Numbered from the stretch's first letter, positions 1-6,266 are shown. The stretch is 64,000 bases of DNA from Escherichia coli (GCF_030013595.1 NZ_CP122768.1); one strand, 5' to 3'. The notes: generated by a model not told the origin, from the sequence alone. Numbers and translations are program-made.

Positions 1-232
1 AGCGGCGGCAAAGTGGCAGCAGCTACAACGCGGAGCCGCAGCGTTCTCCATCACATTGGCACGTGGACGCGCAGAACTCTACCCCGAAATGCATGGCACG
101 GTAACAGGCTTTAAAAGCGAGATTGATAATCAGGACTGGATTATTGCGAAAGCCGAGCACACCATTGATAACAGCGGCTTTACCACGCAGCTTGAGCTTG
201 AGGCAAAAATCCCGGAATGGATAGCAGAATGA
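1..232 (+). CDS. 3' fragment of a phage late/tail gene, probably P2 gpD-like (runs off window start)
   Basis: Open frame from window start to TGA at 230-232 (..FTTQLELEAKIPEWIAE*); plus-strand, immediately upstream of an ogr-like gene as in P2 (D then ogr). Identification from position and weak sequence memory only. Confidence 0.4.
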   Translation, partial: AAAKWQQLQRGAAAFSITLARGRAELYPEMHGTVTGFKSEIDNQDWIIAKAEHTIDNSGFTTQLELEAKIPEWIAE

Positions 233-396
233 GACTCTTAAATGTATTAGTCCAGACACGTACTAGCGGGCTAAACGGCACAGTCTTATCTGACCATCTG
301 CCCCTGACACAGAGCAGACGGTCCTTGATCTTACCCACTAATAATGGACGCGCGACTAATATAATTTATTGCTTTTTATTTATACCTCACTGAGAT

Positions 397-1032
397 TTAG
401 CGAGCTAATATATTCAAAGAATTTAACAATTGAGTGTCGAGTGTTTCAGTTGCAGGAATCGGTAATCCATTCGCAATGCGGTAATTTTTCACAGACAGCC
501 TTGTGGATGGCCCCATTATGCCGTCAATATTTCCGTTATAAAATCCCCTGTCCAGCAATGCGAACTGAACTCGCATAATCAATCGCTTACGTTTCTCTGC
601 ATCAGAAGCAAGCCCATTACTCGTACGGTTAACCTCTGAAGTTCCAACAGAACTCGTGTTAGTGGTTCTATTATTATCGTTAGAACGAAGTGCACGCACC
701 GAGGAAGAGGACGATGAGGAACTTGCACCTGAACTTGAAGAACCAGATGAACTTGGTGAGCTGTATGTTTTTGGATAATAGGGGGTACTTCCACCATAGT
801 ATCCACCACCTGATGAGGATCTATGAGAGCTATGGCTCCTATGAGAACTATGGCTTCGATGCCCTGCGATATAAAATGGGACTTCCGTGTTAAGTGGAGC
901 TATCACTAAATCATGCTCATTAAGAGTCATACCAGGTAAATCACTCGCTCCTGTAGATGAATCGCTTGCCCATACAGAATTGTTGAGAGCCAAAAATCCC
1001 GGAAGTAGAGCAGCAAAATTAAACTTTTTCAT
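397..1032 (-). CDS. hxsA: HxsA-type His-Xaa-Ser repeat protein (signal peptide, tandem H-x-S triplets, Ser/Gly/Tyr-rich tract, C-terminal peptidoglycan-binding domain)
   Basis: Translation from MKKFNFAALLPGFLALNNSVWA (Sec-like signal) contains HRSHSSHRSHSSHRS, then SSPSSSGSSSSGASSSSSSSS, then a PG_binding_1-like C-terminus (LLDRGFYNGNIDGIMGPSTRLSVKNYRIANGL). Start ATG overlaps upstream gene stop (ATGA). Confidence 0.8.
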   Translation of the reverse strand: MKKFNFAALLPGFLALNNSVWASDSSTGASDLPGMTLNEHDLVIAPLNTEVPFYIAGHRSHSSHRSHSSHRSSSGGGYYGGSTPYYPKTYSSPSSSGSSSSGASSSSSSSSVRALRSNDNNRTTNTSSVGTSEVNRTSNGLASDAEKRKRLIMRVQFALLDRGFYNGNIDGIMGPSTRLSVKNYRIANGLPIPATETLDTQLLNSLNILAR

Positions 1033-2141
1033 AAAATTGGTCTCGGTGATTGATGAAAACGGCCTTTTGAGGAACTGAAATAGCCAGCACAGGAAGGCTT
1101 CTGAGTACATTCATCACATTCTTTTGGATAGTAATTTTTCCAATCAGAGATCGACTGAACAGCAAGCTCCCTAGCCCTTTCAGGAAGATAACACAAAGGA
1201 TAATTAAAAATTGTCAGAGGTATGCCTGACCTGTATGCAGCGTCTATGGCAGAGATTATTTTCTCACTATAACTACTGTGATCAATGAAGATGGTGGACC
1301 AGTTTTTTCGTGCCCAACCGATAGGCTCCAACCCCATAAGGGAAATCTGATTGATGTTGGAGAACACACGGCCAGCGAATTCTACGATATCATCCAATTC
1401 GGTATAGTTAGCCAGTGTAGGAATAACTCTAAGTTCGATATTAATCCCCAAGTTTCCTGCATTGATTAACCCTTTAACCGTTTCATTAAATGCGCCATCA
1501 CTCCCTACCAGATGATCATGCACAAGTGGTCTTGATGAGTAGAGCGGGATACCAAAGGTGATTTTGATCTTTTTGCTTCGCTTTGCCATTTCCTGTGTAA
1601 AGTTGGTATCAGCAAATTTGCGTCCGTTTGTTAAAACATGTAAAGCAGTATCTGGTGAATTCTCGATGATAAAATCAATGAAGTGAAGGAAGTCATCCCC
1701 ATATAGCAAAGGTTCACCACCGCTGACCCCAACAACTCCGTTCAAGCCAAATGAAGCTATAGCAAGAGCTGATTGGGTAAGTAGCCAGTCATCATTTATT
1801 TTCTTTGGTGGCTGCGAACAAAACAGACACAAGTTATTGCAGCGTTCCGTAACTAAGACAGTATTATGATTGGCTTTGCGTGACAGAATAACGCGTATCA
1901 TATTGCCATTGTTGATTATCCCAATATCTCCATCTTCAATTGACTCAAATAATTCAGTGCTAATAACAGAGAAATCAAAGCATGGTGGAATGGCATCATT
2001 ATTGCCTTCAGCAACTACTAGCAAATTGGGCAAAAAGAATAAAGGGTTCACTGGTTTTTGTTTGCATAACCGATAGAACCCCGTGGGCACGTTCTCTGTA
2101 GAAGCAAAATGAAAGATATCGTTCCTGATAACCTCAGACAT
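1029..2141 (-). CDS. Radical SAM maturase of the His-Xaa-Ser system (HxsB/HxsC-type; which of the two is not resolved)
   Basis: 370 aa ORF with CNNLCLFC (CxxxCxxC radical SAM cluster) and a C-terminal Cys-rich region (CDECTQKPSCAGY); sits between the other rSAM gene and hxsA with overlapping stop/start codons. Confidence 0.8.
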   Translation of the reverse strand: MSEVIRNDIFHFASTENVPTGFYRLCKQKPVNPLFFLPNLLVVAEGNNDAIPPCFDFSVISTELFESIEDGDIGIINNGNMIRVILSRKANHNTVLVTERCNNLCLFCSQPPKKINDDWLLTQSALAIASFGLNGVVGVSGGEPLLYGDDFLHFIDFIIENSPDTALHVLTNGRKFADTNFTQEMAKRSKKIKITFGIPLYSSRPLVHDHLVGSDGAFNETVKGLINAGNLGINIELRVIPTLANYTELDDIVEFAGRVFSNINQISLMGLEPIGWARKNWSTIFIDHSSYSEKIISAIDAAYRSGIPLTIFNYPLCYLPERARELAVQSISDWKNYYPKECDECTQKPSCAGYFSSSKGRFHQSPRPIL

Positions 2142-3522
2142 ATGCCCATCCTTTTAGCATCTCAGCCTTCGAACCACCCTCTGAGATGCAGTTCATCAGA
2201 TACCTGAACATCCCCTTGTGATATTGACAAAACGTTGAACGACTCCTATCACCGACAGGCTCACCCTGTACACTTATGTTCTGGCATGGATCTGAACCAC
2301 AAAATGGTTGATATGCACATGTATCACAACCTGGCAGAGCAAAATTGAACGATGAACTCAATACTGCGTTATAGTAAGGACTATCAGAAAATGATAGCGT
2401 CTTAACTTCACCCGCACTGAACTCCGTTTCAGGATTCACCTTCTGCAACATACGGCTCTCATCGCTACCATATACTCGACCGTCATAATTGAAAAGAATA
2501 CTGTTAAGCACGACTCCACTTGGAGACTTTAAATCCGCATAACCACTAAAACCGGGATTGAAGATCCTTTTCAGATGAATGGAGGCCGAATGTTCCACAA
2601 CCCTTATCCCTTCATTATTAATCTTAAGGATTTCATCTATCAACGAGGCATAGAAGCTGAAGTATTCGTCCATAGAAAAGGTGAAAGAAGCTTTTTGTGC
2701 AAACCCATAGGGACTAACAGGTCGGATAAACATGTCCTTGAGACCAAGAGACAAGTGAGCCTGAACAATCGATTCAGGACGTCTGATAAGCTCTTTAGTA
2801 ACTGTAGTAACCGTTGCAACGCGGCCAGCACCTAAAGAGTGTTTGATAGCCTCTACCCCTGACACTGTTCTACTGTACGCAAGCCCACGACCAAGAATTC
2901 GATTACTGTTGTGAACAACTTCCTCACCATCAAGCGACACAGAGAACGTTATGTTCCGGTCTCTCGACCATTCAATCATATCCTCATTCAAGACAGACAG
3001 ACTTGATGCCACCACCATCTCAAAATTGGTTCTTCCCAGCGTTTCAGCACATTGATCATAGATGCTCTGAATTAAATCAAACCGCAAGAGAGGCTCCCCA
3101 CCCTGTATCTCTATTTTGTAAGGTGGCGTTGATAGTTTTTTAATAGCCGAAATAATATCGGGGATGAGCTCAGGATTTAGGTCGTAACCTGAGGCATTAA
3201 CAGAAGCTCTACTAACCTGGCAATACTTGCATGTATGGTCACAACGTAATGTGGGTACAATCATGAAAATTGGCCTGACAGCCAGTTCATTCATCAATCG
3301 TTTTGCAAAAGCAGAACTTAAAGCATAGGGAGTTATAGCAGATGAGCTTTCACTGGTTATGAAAAGCTTACTTTCTAGCACGTTTGATTGCTCCGAACTA
3401 ATTCGCTCATCAGAAAGATCAATAAGGTCTTGCTCACCAATGAAATGATGAAAACCTGCAAGGTTGCTTATAAACACCTGTCCATTAGGCAATCTGTCAA
3501 AATTAAATGGCATCAATTCCAT
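2134..3522 (-). CDS. Radical SAM/SPASM-type maturase of the His-Xaa-Ser system (HxsB/HxsC-type)
   Basis: 462 aa ORF with CDHTCKYC radical SAM motif and C-terminal auxiliary-cluster cysteines (CDTCAYQPFCGSDPCQ...FCQ); stop overlaps next gene start by 8 nt; start overlaps hxsD stop (TAATG). Confidence 0.8.
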   Translation of the reverse strand: MELMPFNFDRLPNGQVFISNLAGFHHFIGEQDLIDLSDERISSEQSNVLESKLFITSESSSAITPYALSSAFAKRLMNELAVRPIFMIVPTLRCDHTCKYCQVSRASVNASGYDLNPELIPDIISAIKKLSTPPYKIEIQGGEPLLRFDLIQSIYDQCAETLGRTNFEMVVASSLSVLNEDMIEWSRDRNITFSVSLDGEEVVHNSNRILGRGLAYSRTVSGVEAIKHSLGAGRVATVTTVTKELIRRPESIVQAHLSLGLKDMFIRPVSPYGFAQKASFTFSMDEYFSFYASLIDEILKINNEGIRVVEHSASIHLKRIFNPGFSGYADLKSPSGVVLNSILFNYDGRVYGSDESRMLQKVNPETEFSAGEVKTLSFSDSPYYNAVLSSSFNFALPGCDTCAYQPFCGSDPCQNISVQGEPVGDRSRSTFCQYHKGMFRYLMNCISEGGSKAEMLKGWAYV

Positions 3523-3836
3523 TATGAAAGCCTCTCATCAACACTGCGAAGCACTTTATGGACAATAGAGTCTCTCAACGCCCCTGTTTTATGCTGTAGC
3601 TTTTCTCGCAAAGAGTAATCATTAAGCAGCCTATCGAATTCATAAAGGAATTTGGGATTATCGTTTTCAAAAGAGATTATCCAGTGGGAAACGTCTTCAT
3701 GGAGTTTCCATCGAGTAAGCGGAGTCATCCAATATAGACTATTGCGTATAACCCATTCAGAATATAGTTCTTTCTCAAACACTCTTTCGCTCATTGCAAT
3801 TATCTTCCAATACAAATATTCATGATCAGCAACCAC
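3522..3836 (-). CDS. hxsD: HxsD-type small protein carrying the LLNDYxLRE signature
   Basis: 104 aa ORF containing FDRLLNDYSLREKLQ; first gene of the four-gene minus-strand operon. True start may be an internal Met (MSERVF). Confidence 0.75.
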   Translation of the reverse strand: MVADHEYLYWKIIAMSERVFEKELYSEWVIRNSLYWMTPLTRWKLHEDVSHWIISFENDNPKFLYEFDRLLNDYSLREKLQHKTGALRDSIVHKVLRSVDERLS

Positions 3837-3871
3837 TTTAAAGCGGATTTTTCCTATGGCAACAATAATAT

Positions 3872-3974
3872 AACATATCCATAGATATGTTACAGATGCC
3901 TTGTTTCCCGTTGACTAATACATCACAACGTTAGTAATGGCTATCACAATTGTGAACTTCCACTTTTCACACAA
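3872..3974. promoter_or_regulatory. Divergent hxsD/ogr control region with two dyad-symmetric elements
   Basis: AACATAT-N6-ATATGTT palindrome at 3872-3891 and TGTGAA-N9-TTCACA dyad at 3954-3974, both in the 210-bp gap between divergent hxsD and ogr starts. Confidence 0.3.
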
Positions 3975-4046
3975 GACAAGCTGTTAATTGGAATCTGTAT
4001 CAGTACAACTTAGAATATCGGAAGCACCACAGTAAGGGAGGTCGCT

Positions 4047-4307
4047 ATGTTCCGTTGTCCGCTTTGTGGCGCATCCGCCCGAATCCGCACCAGTCGTCCG
4101 GAAAATGATTCAAACACCGTGCGGCAAAAGTATTACCAATGTAACAACCTAGAATGCGGCGTATGCTTCTCAACACTGGAAGCTTTCCATAAATTCACAT
4201 CAAAACACGCCTCCGGCGCTCACTCTTCAGAAGGTATCCCGTGGCATGAACTGCCAGCTTCACACAAAGGAAACAATCAGATGAGTTTGCCCTTACCTCA
4301 AAATTAA
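4047..4307 (+). CDS. ogr: Ogr/Delta-family zinc-finger late-gene transcription activator
   Basis: MFRCPLCGASARIRTSR...YYQCNNLECGVCF matches the P2 Ogr pattern (MFHCPLC..ARTSR...YHQCQNVNCSATF); C-terminally extended relative to P2 Ogr. Confidence 0.75.
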   Translation: MFRCPLCGASARIRTSRPENDSNTVRQKYYQCNNLECGVCFSTLEAFHKFTSKHASGAHSSEGIPWHELPASHKGNNQMSLPLPQN

Positions 4308-4367
4308 CAGGCAGAATTGCCGGAGTAACAAAAAAGAGATAGATTACGCGCGGGTGCCTTTCGGCTG

Positions 4368-4631
4368 ATGGTCGGAGGGAATACCCGAAGGCCAGATGTG
4401 GAAAGGCCCCGGAAAACATTTCTGTTTAACCGAGGCCCTAACCGCATTACCTTGACAAGTGAAAGGTTAGCGCCTCTCCGGAAAAGGAGCAAGTGCTATG
4501 TCGCAAAAATCGCTTACGGCCATCATGTTCTGCGTGACGGCAATCCTCATCATCTGGATGTTGCACGGTTCGCTGTGCGAAATACGGATGAGATTCTGGG
4601 GAGCGGAGTTTGCGGCGTTCTTACAGTGTAA
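4368..4631 (+). CDS. mok-like reading frame overlapping hok (translational coupling frame of a hok/sok locus)
   Basis: 87-codon ORF in a different frame that starts upstream of and overlaps the hok-like frame, the arrangement typical of mok. Confidence 0.4.
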   Translation: MVGGNTRRPDVERPRKTFLFNRGPNRITLTSERLAPLRKRSKCYVAKIAYGHHVLRDGNPHHLDVARFAVRNTDEILGSGVCGVLTV

Positions 4632-4638
4632 GCAGTAA
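4498..4638 (+). CDS. hok: Hok/Gef-family type I toxin, 46 aa
   Basis: ATG at 4498 preceded by GGAGCA; peptide MSQKSLTAIMFCVTAILIIWMLHGSLCEIRMRFWGAEFAAFLQCKQ has one hydrophobic helix and the Hok-type C-x-T...SLCEIR motif; the 5' element GGGTGCCTT (4352-4360) is complementary to AAGGCACCC (4695-4703), resembling tac/fbi pairing. Confidence 0.7.
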   Translation: MSQKSLTAIMFCVTAILIIWMLHGSLCEIRMRFWGAEFAAFLQCKQ

Positions 4639-4724
4639 GGAAACCGCGACGGGGGAGCAATCCCCCGTCAATCGGTTGCCAGGGTAAGGTCGATAAGGCA
4701 CCCTATCTCACAGACATGAACAAC

Positions 4725-4760
4725 AAACCCGCAACGTAAAAACTGCGGGTTTTCTTTTTG
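4725..4760 (+). terminator. Rho-independent terminator downstream of hok
   Basis: aaacccgcaacgtaaaaactgcggguuu hairpin followed by a T-run. Confidence 0.6.
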
Positions 4761-4902
4761 GTGTCCTTACTGACTTGAAACGGTGATCAGACTATAAGAC
4801 AAAGCCCACAATGTAGCGGGCTTACTCCCCTCTCCCTCCACTGAATGTGGACACATGGTGGAACGAAGATATATAAAACATTATAAATCAATCGGTTACT
4901 GA

Positions 4903-4928
4903 AAGAAAAAAGGCCGCAGAGCGGCCTT
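4903..4928 (-). terminator. Rho-independent terminator ending the minus-strand lambdoid gene set
   Basis: aggccgcagagcggcct hairpin with an A-run on plus strand (T-run on minus strand) immediately 3' of the ORF ending at 4949. Confidence 0.55.
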
Positions 4929-4948
4929 TATGGTTTATTGACAATTGA

Positions 4949-5164
4949 TTAAGACGTGTGGCACTTATTGGCACACCAATAGCAACCATTCACCCGGGAA
5001 TATCCTTTGGCCTTTGCCTCTGTTACCGCCGAAGAACAATCACTATAGTAACCAAGGTAATCGCGGTTAGCTACAGCAGGAAGATATGAACATTCCTCAG
5101 CATGCACCTCATGATCGCCATTGCTCTGAGCATTTTTGTTCACGTAATAGTGTTTAAAAACCAT
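4949..5164 (-). CDS. Hypothetical small Cys-rich phage protein
   Basis: 71 aa ORF, terminator immediately downstream; no family recognised. Confidence 0.4.
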   Translation of the reverse strand: MVFKHYYVNKNAQSNGDHEVHAEECSYLPAVANRDYLGYYSDCSSAVTEAKAKGYSRVNGCYWCANKCHTS

Positions 5165-5287
5165 TGTATAACTCCATGTTGACGCTGATATTCAGCATTA
5201 ACATGCTATATCACCAATTACACAAACATAAGCTTGTTATTTCAATTAGTTGATAACGATCACCACTGAACTTTGGCCTTGCGAAAT

Positions 5288-5497
5288 TCAAATGTTTTTC
5301 TGACTATTATTGGGCCGATAAACAGATATTATTTGAGCGTTTTGGTTCATTACATAAGCAATATCTCCATCTTTCAGAATGACTTTCCCATCCTTTCCCG
5401 ATACGGCAATACTCCGCTGCTCAGGATGATAGCCAATGCTACGCCCGCAATGGATCTCTTCCCCACCATTTTGAGACATGACTTTTACAGTTAACAT
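5288..5497 (-). CDS. Hypothetical small phage protein
   Basis: 69 aa ORF; no family recognised. Confidence 0.35.
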   Translation of the reverse strand: MLTVKVMSQNGGEEIHCGRSIGYHPEQRSIAVSGKDGKVILKDGDIAYVMNQNAQIISVYRPNNSQKNI

Positions 5498-5584
5498 TTT
5501 TCTGCTCCTATTTAGATGCCCTTTCCATCCGGGCCACTGTTCAAAGTAAATTTAGATTCAACAATATTCTGCTCTTACAGGCGA

Positions 5585-5767
5585 TCAGTTCTGCATACAC
5601 TGCCGAACACCGTCGACAATTTCACAGACCTGAGAAGCTGTATCGAAAAGCTGGCGCGCCTTATCCAGGCTGACGCATCCCACCAGGAAAAAAGGCACCA
5701 GTATCGCTACCAGTGCCCATTTCGCCGCCGTTCGCGGCATTCTGTGTGTCCAGTGTTTTCGCTTCAT
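5585..5767 (-). CDS. Small predicted lipoprotein (possible o-spanin or exclusion lipoprotein)
   Basis: MKRKHW... with hydrophobic signal and lipobox LVGC; lies downstream of the lysis cassette. Confidence 0.4.
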   Translation of the reverse strand: MKRKHWTHRMPRTAAKWALVAILVPFFLVGCVSLDKARQLFDTASQVCEIVDGVRQCMQN

Positions 5768-6266
5768 CTCACTATCCACCAATCAATCCGGATAAGCTCA
5801 ATACTCGCCAGGCGGTGGAAATGAAAATGGCAACCAACATTGCTGAAAATGAAAGGCCAACAACCACACAGAGAATTCGCGCCAGTTTTATAATGCTATC
5901 TGACATATTTACCCCTGCCCCACTTACGATTTCACAGCAATGAGCAATTTTGCCATCCCATACAGCATCGGAGACACAGCGATACCGACCGCCACCCACT
6001 TAATGGCAAAAGCCACCGCTCTGCTGATGTCATCAGTTACAGGCGCTTTCAATTCAAGGCCGTTTTTCATAGTCAACCTCAACAGAATTAGTTTATACTT
6101 CCTCATGTTCTCCTTTGCCTTACCCAAGGCCAGAAACAGAAAACCCCGGACTGTTACCGCAGCCGGGGTTTTTGCTATCTGATGCTATGCCCCTTACTTT
6201 CGCTCATCGTAGCCCCAGAAAAGAGCCTGCATGAGTTGAGGGTGTTCAGCACTTCAGTGTCAGTTT

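Follow-up and report, generated by a model that had tools for sequence, protein, structure and literature searches.

The first 4.7 kb of a 64,000-nucleotide stretch of Escherichia coli DNA (NZ_CP122768.1; the whole stretch is referred to here as the window) raise the question of how an hxs operon comes to lie between two late genes of a P2-like prophage, and whether it belongs to the phage at all. In P2 (NC_001895) the end of gene D (23954) is separated by 81 bp from the start of ogr (24036), and a terminator, attP and int follow. In the window the corresponding interval is 3,814 bp long with a GC content of 0.41, where the gpD end and the ogr/hok side have 0.50-0.51, and all four of its long open reading frames (ORFs) lie on the minus strand. 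Taking the evidence together, we conclude that positions 233-4046 are very probably cargo in a hypervariable hotspot near the right end of a P88-like prophage and carry an intact HXS defence system; the origin that we propose for the borders of this slot, and for a 24-nt core within them, is held with lower confidence.

The genes on either side fix the position of the cargo. The plus-strand frame at 2-232 encodes 76 residues that are 57% identical to residues 307-378 of P2 gpD (E 6e-27), and its DNA is 94-96% identical to the annotated gpD of P88, PhiR44_2, Xuanwuvirus P884B11 and related Peduoviridae. The ogr product has 86 residues, shares 38% identity and the Cys pairs with P2 Ogr, and is annotated as an ogr/Delta-like zinc finger at the 99.6% identical locus of E. 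coli O26:H11 11368. The host phage is P88-like (Xuanwuvirus/Gemsvirus, Peduoviridae) and not P2 proper. An earlier note on this DNA, made by reference to the P2 order of D, ogr and attachment site, had placed a gpD-like stop at 232, ogr at 4047, and about 3.8 kb of AT-rich, oppositely oriented cargo between them; these observations are confirmed, and both positions are exact.

Comparison with related phages shows how variable this interval is. We surveyed 80 IMG/VR contigs whose gpD is at least 98% identical to that of PhiR44_2, determining the position of ogr in each. The slot is empty in 39 contigs, with 42 bp from the gpD stop to the ogr start, and occupied in 35, while six contigs end before ogr. 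By size and sequence the occupants form 19 classes, 1.0-3.8 kb long, with a GC content of 0.32-0.43 and genes on either strand, and they share only their first ~100 and last 60-90 bp. A scan of 20 slot cargo proteins against PADLOC, judged by count, gave four matches: PifA (E 1e-64), PDC-S06 over its full length (E 2e-277), PDC-S31 (E 4e-27) and a PsyrT-like phosphoribosyltransferase (E 1e-07). With many unrelated gene sets, an empty state and defence genes, the D-ogr slot is a phage accessory-gene and defence hotspot, and the interpretation of the earlier note, that the cargo was inserted at a phage variable site, is supported.

Hotspots of this kind are known elsewhere in P2. One of them, occupied by old/tin, separates gpA from the portal gene, and another, occupied by fun(Z), separates G from FI (Rousset et al. 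2022, PMC9122126); P2 accessory hotspots are also treated in a preprint by Egorov and Atkinson (10.1101/2024.10.15.618418). Both P2 sites likewise hold AT-rich, variable, defence-rich cargo between conserved genes, often on the opposite strand, at positions that differ from the D-ogr slot. A 2026 preprint reports minor hotspots close to int/att and inside the late genes; the D-ogr slot may be one or the other of these, though neither is named as such in that preprint, nor is HXS (10.64898/2026.02.27.708500). Both the defence system HXS and this kind of phage hotspot are known, and what is new is the occupant. The features of the locus are listed in Table 1.

Table 1. Features of the gpD-to-prophage-end segment, in positions of the window.
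Feature	Coordinates	Strand	Details or basis
gpD 3' end (tail/late gene D)	1..232	+	stop TGA 230-232; gene enters from outside the window
Degenerate left copy GACTCTTAAA of the empty-site sequence GCAACTTAGA	233..242		21 slot classes compared with the empty PhiR44_2 slot
Left border element of slot insertion	243..330		terminal block TGTATTAGTCCAGAC 243-257; hairpin-capable dyad core 294-323
hxsA, effector precursor	397..1032	-	longest ORF to 1110; TIGR03979
hxsC, radical SAM/SPASM maturase	1029..2141	-	TIGR03977
hxsB, radical SAM/SPASM maturase	2134..3522	-	TIGR03978
hxsD, small accessory protein	3522..3794	-	longest ORF to 3836; TIGR03976
hxs upstream (promoter) region	3795..3907	-	pairwise alignments with island loci L005/L006
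Right border element	3945..4016		inverted left-border copy 3945-3998; CAACTTAGA 4006-4014; promoter-like site 3988-4016
ogr, zinc-finger activator of late transcription	4047..4307	+	P2 Ogr identity; O26 RefSeq annotation
hok/mok/sok-type toxin-antitoxin module, then right prophage end	4340..4711	+	Rfam sok match; Hok ORF

The cargo itself is readily identified. The minus-strand ORFs hxsD-hxsB-hxsC-hxsA are contiguous and overlapping from 3794 to 397, all four are intact, and their match to the NCBIfam equivalog models is far beyond chance (bits, with the cut-off in brackets: HxsA 161 (122), HxsC 398 (268), HxsB 559 (370) and HxsD 91 (50)). HXS was described by Li et al. (Nat Commun, March 2026, PMC13128918), who found 110 of 113 coliphages restricted and all four genes needed. 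Adsorption stays intact and there is no abortive infection or cell killing; it is the entry of phage DNA that is blocked. HxsB, HxsC and HxsD are required for the cleavage of HxsA and for a +8 Da modification, HxsA must reach the periplasm and bind peptidoglycan, and T7 escape mutations map to the ejectosome genes gp15 and gp16 (PMC13128918). These tests used the operon of E. coli MEM, expressed from plasmids in laboratory strains (PMC13128918).

The copy in the window matches that of MEM in its four genes and their order. Both radical SAM enzymes have a CxxxCxxC cluster and a second Cys cluster: HxsB Cys 94/98/101 and 399/402 stand at the published positions, as do HxsC Cys 101/105/108 and 342/345, which are the residues mutated in the published system. 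HxsA has the 22-aa signal peptide (MKKFNFAALLPGFLALNNSVWA), followed by the five HxS repeats at residues 58-72, and its C-terminus matches a SleB-type peptidoglycan-binding region. HxsD carries the motifs LYW at residues 20-22 and LLNDYxLRE at 56-64, the numbering being offset by two residues from that of MEM. By analogy, we infer that the window copy would act by the published mechanism. Upstream of hxsD are promoter-like hexamers at 3893-3865 and 3862-3835, which are consensus matches only.

A different reading of the same four genes is that they serve some other lysogenic-conversion function, for example as a periplasmic His/Ser-rich metal-binding or wall-remodelling protein. NCBIfam, indeed, names only a radical-SAM maturation system for a His-Xaa-Ser repeat protein, the 2023 release of PADLOC holds no model for it, and the defence function comes from a single paper that used plasmid expression in laboratory strains. 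The breadth of restriction, the dependence on all four genes and the T7 gp15/gp16 escapes (PMC13128918) speak against a non-defence role, as does the company that the genes keep, since both the slot and the hxs island neighbourhoods described below are full of known or candidate defence genes, and we consider such a role very unlikely. A viperin was also rejected, because PADLOC gives only a weak, generic radical-SAM similarity to pVip and the HXS equivalogs score far higher. Superinfection-exclusion functions of prophages and phages, such as P22 SieA, T4 Imm and HK97 gp15, likewise act at DNA entry and stop DNA at the envelope without host suicide; these are single small membrane proteins, whereas HXS is a radical-SAM-matured periplasmic protein of very broad range.

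Whether hxs is a phage gene set in general is a separate matter. It is present in 155 of 5,426 complete E. coli genomes, in three variants. The variant of the window (at least 99% identity) occurs in 45 genomes and lies in all 45 between gpD and ogr of a P2-family prophage, as judged by a single match covering at least 80% of a gpD-hxs-ogr-hok query. The other two variants are ~90-91% identical (46 genomes) and ~72% identical (64 genomes), and all six of their copies that were sampled are on islands. In these islands a relaxase or mobilisation gene lies a few kb to one side of hxs and integrase or recombinase genes, or fragments of them, to the other; two of the six copies directly adjoin ssrA, and all six stand amid other defence-type genes. 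The hxs family is oftener found on integrative mobilisable islands than on phages. Since 110 of the 155 genomes carry one of the other two variants, whose sampled copies are on islands, prophage cargo status is true of the window's lineage only. The proposal in the earlier note that the Hxs operon be treated as phage accessory cargo holds for this lineage, then, and fails for Hxs at large.

This picture differs from the published one. Li et al. placed 77% of the hxs operons of E. coli outside the prophages called by geNomad and judged HXS to be typically chromosomally encoded, with no P2-family slot described (PMC13128918). The prophage share of 29% in our count agrees with the 23% in theirs, but the 'chromosomal' remainder, as far as sampled, sits on integrative mobilisable elements: all 51 hxs copies examined are on a prophage or an integrase/relaxase island (45 by query coverage and six by neighbourhood). 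As a correction to the literature, hxs in E. coli is not simply 'chromosomal'. Four IMG/VR proviruses carry the window's hxs cargo in the slot. Among the IMG/VR records, provirus calls stop inside hxsB once and inside ogr once (L337, the contig of L060, and L339, the contig of L082). Automated prophage boundaries can evidently clip terminal hxs cargo, which bears on published estimates of the frequency of prophage-borne hxs. In the islands hxsA is directly followed by a DUF6119/TIGR04141 gene in six of seven loci (L005, L006, L007, L345, L346 and L342 among them); this gene is a pseudogene in two island loci and absent from the cassette in the P2 slot, and its association with hxsA may have a functional basis or may follow from a backbone that the islands have in common.

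The published geNomad figure and the island location of two of the three variants could also be taken to mean that gpD and ogr are relics, that hxs belongs to a chromosomal or island context and that its association with a phage is accidental; the window, moreover, includes only the last 232 bp of gpD. This is already contradicted, and we give it almost no chance of being right. The gpD-hxs-ogr-hok arrangement recurs in all 45 genomes with the variant. Both findings that would have refuted the earlier note were looked for, and neither was obtained: the 5' fragment is gpD, and the operon of this variant lies in a phage context in every E. coli genome that carries it. The O26:H11 11368 copy lies within an element of ~35 kb whose ends are an integrase adjoining btuC and hok adjoining ihfA, with a complete P2-type set of genes (integrase, replication, portal, terminase, capsid, lysis and tail). 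Sequenced viruses also exist with identical flanks and an empty slot. The window itself begins inside gpD, and its upstream phage genes were judged through the O26:H11 locus.

If the cargo is exchangeable, its edges should repay comparison with the empty site. The empty-site sequence, GAG-CAACTTAGA-ATAGCGG, is a single copy in the empty slot and flanks the cargo on either side where the slot is occupied (21 classes compared with PhiR44_2), the left side reading ...TGA G-CAACTTAGA-TGCATTAG... and the right side ...GCTAGTA-CAACTTAGA-ATAGCGG... In class L073 the two copies of the 9-bp duplicate share one variant; in the window the copies are at 233-242, where the sequence is degenerate, and at 4006-4014. 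Next to them, edges of ~95 nt on the left and 45-95 nt on the right are conserved at 76-98% identity between unrelated cargo classes, and the left and right edges are inverted copies of each other at profile level. The window's right border is 77-82% identical to the right borders of unrelated classes. A leave-one-out left-border profile (nhmmer), searched against the whole 64 kb, finds 236-302 (E 2e-7) and 294-323 (E 0.04), and its third-best match is an inverted copy at 3998-3945 (E 0.05), in the expected place and orientation. In another occupied slot (L057) the right edge matches the left-edge profile with an E value of 3e-5, and inverted core pairs are found in L002, L057 and L085. The inverted relation between the borders is clear only at the level of profile or consensus and for the 24-nt core.

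These borders are a property of the slot. The homology of the window's hxs to the ssrA-island copy runs from ~375 to ~3907, including ~110 bp upstream of hxsD, and because the module shared with islands spans only this interval, the borders are part of the slot rather than of hxs; the island copies are also without core matches, and the borders were rejected as part of the hxs module. Three further candidates were discarded: long-range pairing or a perfect inverted repeat (the repeat arms are ~72% identical, no better than background pairs); a structured RNA (Rfam gave no match at E <= 1 at the slot borders of the window, L001, L055 and L057, and stem changes are not compensatory); and a high-copy E. 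coli repeat (a 113-nt left border has a median of one place per positive genome). As single-stranded DNA, positions 285-330 of the window fold with -7.8 kcal/mol (z -3.0).

The best-conserved part of the borders is a 24-nt dyad, GTCCGCTyTGTGCCArrAGCGGAC, which is accompanied by longer flanking 'pad' sequences. A BLAST search with one left border found matches in 847 of 5,426 E. coli genomes, always in unannotated DNA; the places sampled are the P2-type G-FI (fun/Z) slot and two CP4-like islands beside a YeeP-type GTPase gene, and variable cargo follows each. P2 itself has an inverted pair of cores around fun(Z) (L212 1317-1362 and 3429-3471), unannotated in the reference record. A scan of viral contigs by exact pattern found at least 120 stretches with the core. 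Among the matches listed, consecutive cores are convergent (+,-) 62 times, 392-5,772 bp apart, and the DNA that they enclose has a GC content of 0.38 as against 0.485 outside; the opposite order (-,+) occurs 20 times, in 18 of which the cores are less than 40 bp apart and form back-to-back doublets between cassettes. Arrays reach three cassettes (L107, cores 2226-5314), and further core-bracketed cargo lies in L089 (4996-5043 and 6813-6854) and L090 (4996-8206). The contexts comprise the P2 G-FI and D-ogr sites, a position downstream of gpA, lambdoid phages and CP4-like islands.

Nearly identical cassettes recur in these different settings. The G-FI cargo of Peduovirus P22H4 has a 96% identical counterpart among the cassettes of the non-P2 array L107, and the homology breaks off within both cores. 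Three P2 G-FI slots and two non-P2 contigs share an FRG-domain cassette at 99.7-99.8% identity, the alignments ending 13-20 nt inside each ~45-nt core match, and a two-cassette block is common to L107 and a G-FI slot. This sharing of cassettes across unrelated backbones points to the cores as probable breakpoints, and the conserved core borders, together with the ends of homology inside the cores, suggest a mechanism of cassette exchange.

These observations bear on a simpler account, according to which the borders are regulatory DNA only, the ogr promoter on the right and the end of the late operon or an insulator on the left, and cargo turns over by homologous or illegitimate recombination through gpD and ogr. 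Part of this fits well: a promoter scan finds TTGGAA-17-TAGAAT (3988-4016) facing ogr and 30 bp upstream of it, and TAGAAT is the most conserved part of the right border. The gpD and ogr genes are nearly identical among phages with different cargo and provide ample flanking homology, while the left and right edges are not significantly complementary in most single loci. However, the core also brackets cargo where there is neither ogr nor a late operon, as in the lambdoid nin region and the CP4-like island by the GTPase gene, and it forms back-to-back doublets between the cassettes of arrays. Shared cassettes lose their homology inside the cores and not in the flanking genes, in the P2 record another hairpin carries the annotation of V-operon terminator and the core has none, and no U-tract follows the core. 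A regulatory role explains the right border at the D-ogr slot, but not the doublets, the lambdoid and island occurrences or the breakpoints, and as an account of the borders we regard it as unlikely.

The duplication and inverted ends at the exact edges of the insertion, as seen against the empty site, raise the alternative that the bordered units are non-autonomous transposons (mobile insertion cassettes, MICs), moved by a transposase acting in trans, each cargo having arrived by transposition. Such units would also be at home in several unrelated targets and in tandem, where they abut with 3-18 bp between their inverted ends, as is observed. Against this, there is no linked transposase gene at the sampled units, and cassettes shared between contexts have the inner 24-nt core and the cargo in common but not the outer 45-70 nt of the ends; the outer end parts are, moreover, similar between different targets. 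The duplication, for its part, is checkable at the D-ogr slot only, the sole slot for which an empty site was found. Transposition of every cargo is, in our judgement, decidedly improbable, and we favour exchange at the cores as the way in which cargo now changes.

Among the listed genome matches the core occurs, often in multiple copies, in Pantoea, Erwinia, Mixta, Citrobacter, Enterobacter, Escherichia and other Enterobacterales. The genome-wide pattern would be expected to match ~70 times by chance in 298 Gb, so that only multi-copy loci, which come from Pantoea, Erwinia, Mixta, Citrobacter and Escherichia and from the two MAGs below, are informative, and the matches outside Enterobacterales that occur singly are within chance expectation. 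Some core doublets fold as one long imperfect hairpin of single-stranded DNA (-18 and -23 kcal/mol, z ~ -5), and others as two small hairpins. A betaproteobacterial metagenome-assembled genome (MAG; L300) has a longer-stem core, GAATGTCCGCT...AGCGGACATTC, in single copies of the same orientation 0.7-2.3 kb apart, resembling a cassette array. Multi-copy core loci were also seen in a Hyphomicrobiales MAG (L219-L223; longer stem, same orientation) and in Candidatus Pantoea deserta (L317-L319). Directly after the last core of the three-cassette array in L107 lies a 275-residue ORF (5402-6229) with a GIY-YIG-like N-terminus (YVYRL...FYVGKGKGNR), which could be either cargo or a nuclease with a bearing on how cassettes move.

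Of the analogues described, the closest is the PeSL motif, found at the borders of variable ORFs in the hyperplastic regions of T4-type phages and put forward as a mediator of modular shuffling (Arbiol et al. 2010, PMC2839356; Comeau et al. 2014, PMC4122927). The two have in common a short conserved border motif and a proposed shuffling by recombination. They differ in that their sequences are unrelated, that the hosts of the core are temperate phages and islands, that its copies are inverted around each cassette with doublets between cassettes, and that no early-promoter function is evident. Integron cassettes with their attC sites and MICs served as further systems for comparison. The former are likewise promoter-poor or self-contained cassettes in head-to-tail arrays with imperfect palindromes of ~70 nt between them, and the latter likewise have inverted ends and a target duplication on the outermost element. 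In contrast to both, core arrays have no IntI or transposase nearby and their cargo genes lie in either orientation; nor are RYYYAAC/GTTRRRY boxes of the attC type evident in the core. An integron cassette array was rejected, as no integrase adjoins the cores in the P2 G-FI, D-ogr or lambdoid contexts, the cores alternate in orientation and cargo is on both strands. The inverted repeats and target duplication at the exact edges of the D-ogr insertion are of MIC type; in the window itself the repeats are degenerate.

A search of the open-access literature for the core sequence string found no relevant paper. Conserved border sequences of P2-like phages may have been described, to go by its title, in an article of 2004 by Nilsson, Karlsson and Haggard-Ljungquist in Mol Biol Evol 21:1, and the priority of the core is uncertain for that reason. 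The 2026 survey of P2/P4 hotspots mentions no border motifs and states that the recombination process by which defence systems are swapped is still to be elucidated (10.64898/2026.02.27.708500).

We propose the following model for the slot and its cargo. The slot would have been opened at least once by an element with imperfect inverted ends of ~95 nt and a 9-bp target duplication of CAACTTAGA, and recombination at the 24-nt dyad core that each end contains would later have exchanged its cargo. More generally, the core and its pads may be the signature of an uncharacterised system that moves self-contained, AT-rich, largely anti-phage cassettes between unrelated enterobacterial elements, a possibility that we advance tentatively. 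Its exchange hotspots would include the P2 G-FI, A-Q and D-ogr sites, lambdoid early and nin regions and CP4-like islands, with the HXS of the window as one unit. Exchange might proceed through a dedicated recombinase acting on attC-like doublets, through transposition in trans, or through short-homology recombination with the core as a handle. Once in place, the operon should be expressible from a repressed prophage because it has its own upstream region and is oriented against the late operon. In the cytoplasm HxsB, HxsC and HxsD would process HxsA at its N-terminus and modify it in a radical-SAM-dependent reaction; mature HxsA would then reach the periplasm, bind peptidoglycan through its C-terminal domain and block incoming phage DNA without cell death. 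Expressed from the prophage, HXS may in this way protect the lysogen, and hence the prophage, from other phages.

Several observations weigh against this model. With regard to the phage, gene D of the O26:H11 11368 prophage (L004 19385-20232) is annotated as 264 residues and a fragment, as against 369 residues, and because gpD is annotated shorter than in phages the hxs-carrying prophage of that strain may be defective. The cargo is often disrupted or targeted, given that 21 of the 40 best-matching E. coli records (H31-H68) carry insertion sequences (IS) inside the 4.7-kb gpD-to-hok segment. The defence role is carried over to the window copy from the operon of E. coli MEM, and with PADLOC-DB 2.0.0 (2023) lacking an HXS model the defence call rests on one paper. 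At the borders, the right-hand copy in the window is weak (E 0.05), within-locus alignment of the left edge with the reverse-complemented right edge exceeds shuffles in only two of 20 classes, and the promoter-like site could alone explain the conservation of the right border. The island copies of hxs are without borders, and there is no recombinase gene common to the hotspots. The variable pair of the core stem (CG 100, CA 25, TG 25, TA 5) is not compensatory; since the loop is as conserved as the stem, it is the sequence of the core, and not a structure, that is kept.

The presence of hxs on a P2-family phage means that HXS can pass to any host that the phage lysogenises, and because it blocks DNA entry, HXS may shape which phages and satellites later enter the lysogen. 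On its own the HXS occupant is of modest interest, and the border repeat matters more if it holds up. A 24-nt site at the breakpoints would, if true, make the swapping of defence systems experimentally testable, and the core would equally serve as a marker sequence in searches of phages and islands for new cargo, undiscovered defence systems among it.

Some minor features of the locus complete its description. The insertion sequences in the best-matching records are IS2, IS600, ISVsa5, ISCro1/IS66 and an IS3-family element; they lie within the operon in at least two records, and the window copy is intact. The junction between prophage and host is at ~4711, where phages integrated elsewhere diverge after ...ACCCTATCTCAC and the O26 chromosome still matches; by comparison with O26:H11 the attachment site is the btuC-ihfA intergenic region. 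A tRNA or tmRNA as integration target was rejected, as there is none in the whole 64-kb window. Past the prophage end the window follows the O26-type btuC-ihfA chromosome for ~220 bp, up to a 29-bp hairpin (4907-4936) that is the ihfA terminator in O26. From there on its sequence is that of the inner part of a lambdoid prophage (GH108 lysin, holins, DNA methyltransferase and Q), and ihfA is not at its expected place. This join was seen in none of the 5,426 E. coli genomes; a rearrangement, a tandem prophage or a join made in assembly could account for it. Between ogr and the attachment site, P88-like phages have a hok/sok module in addition to the gpD-ogr-att order. In the window it gives an Rfam sok match at 4352-4511 (49 bits, under the gathering score) and a Hok ORF at 4498-4638, annotated as Hok/Gef in relatives, and the hok/mok/sok module (4340-4700) has ~80% identical relatives in many Stx-converting lambdoid phages.

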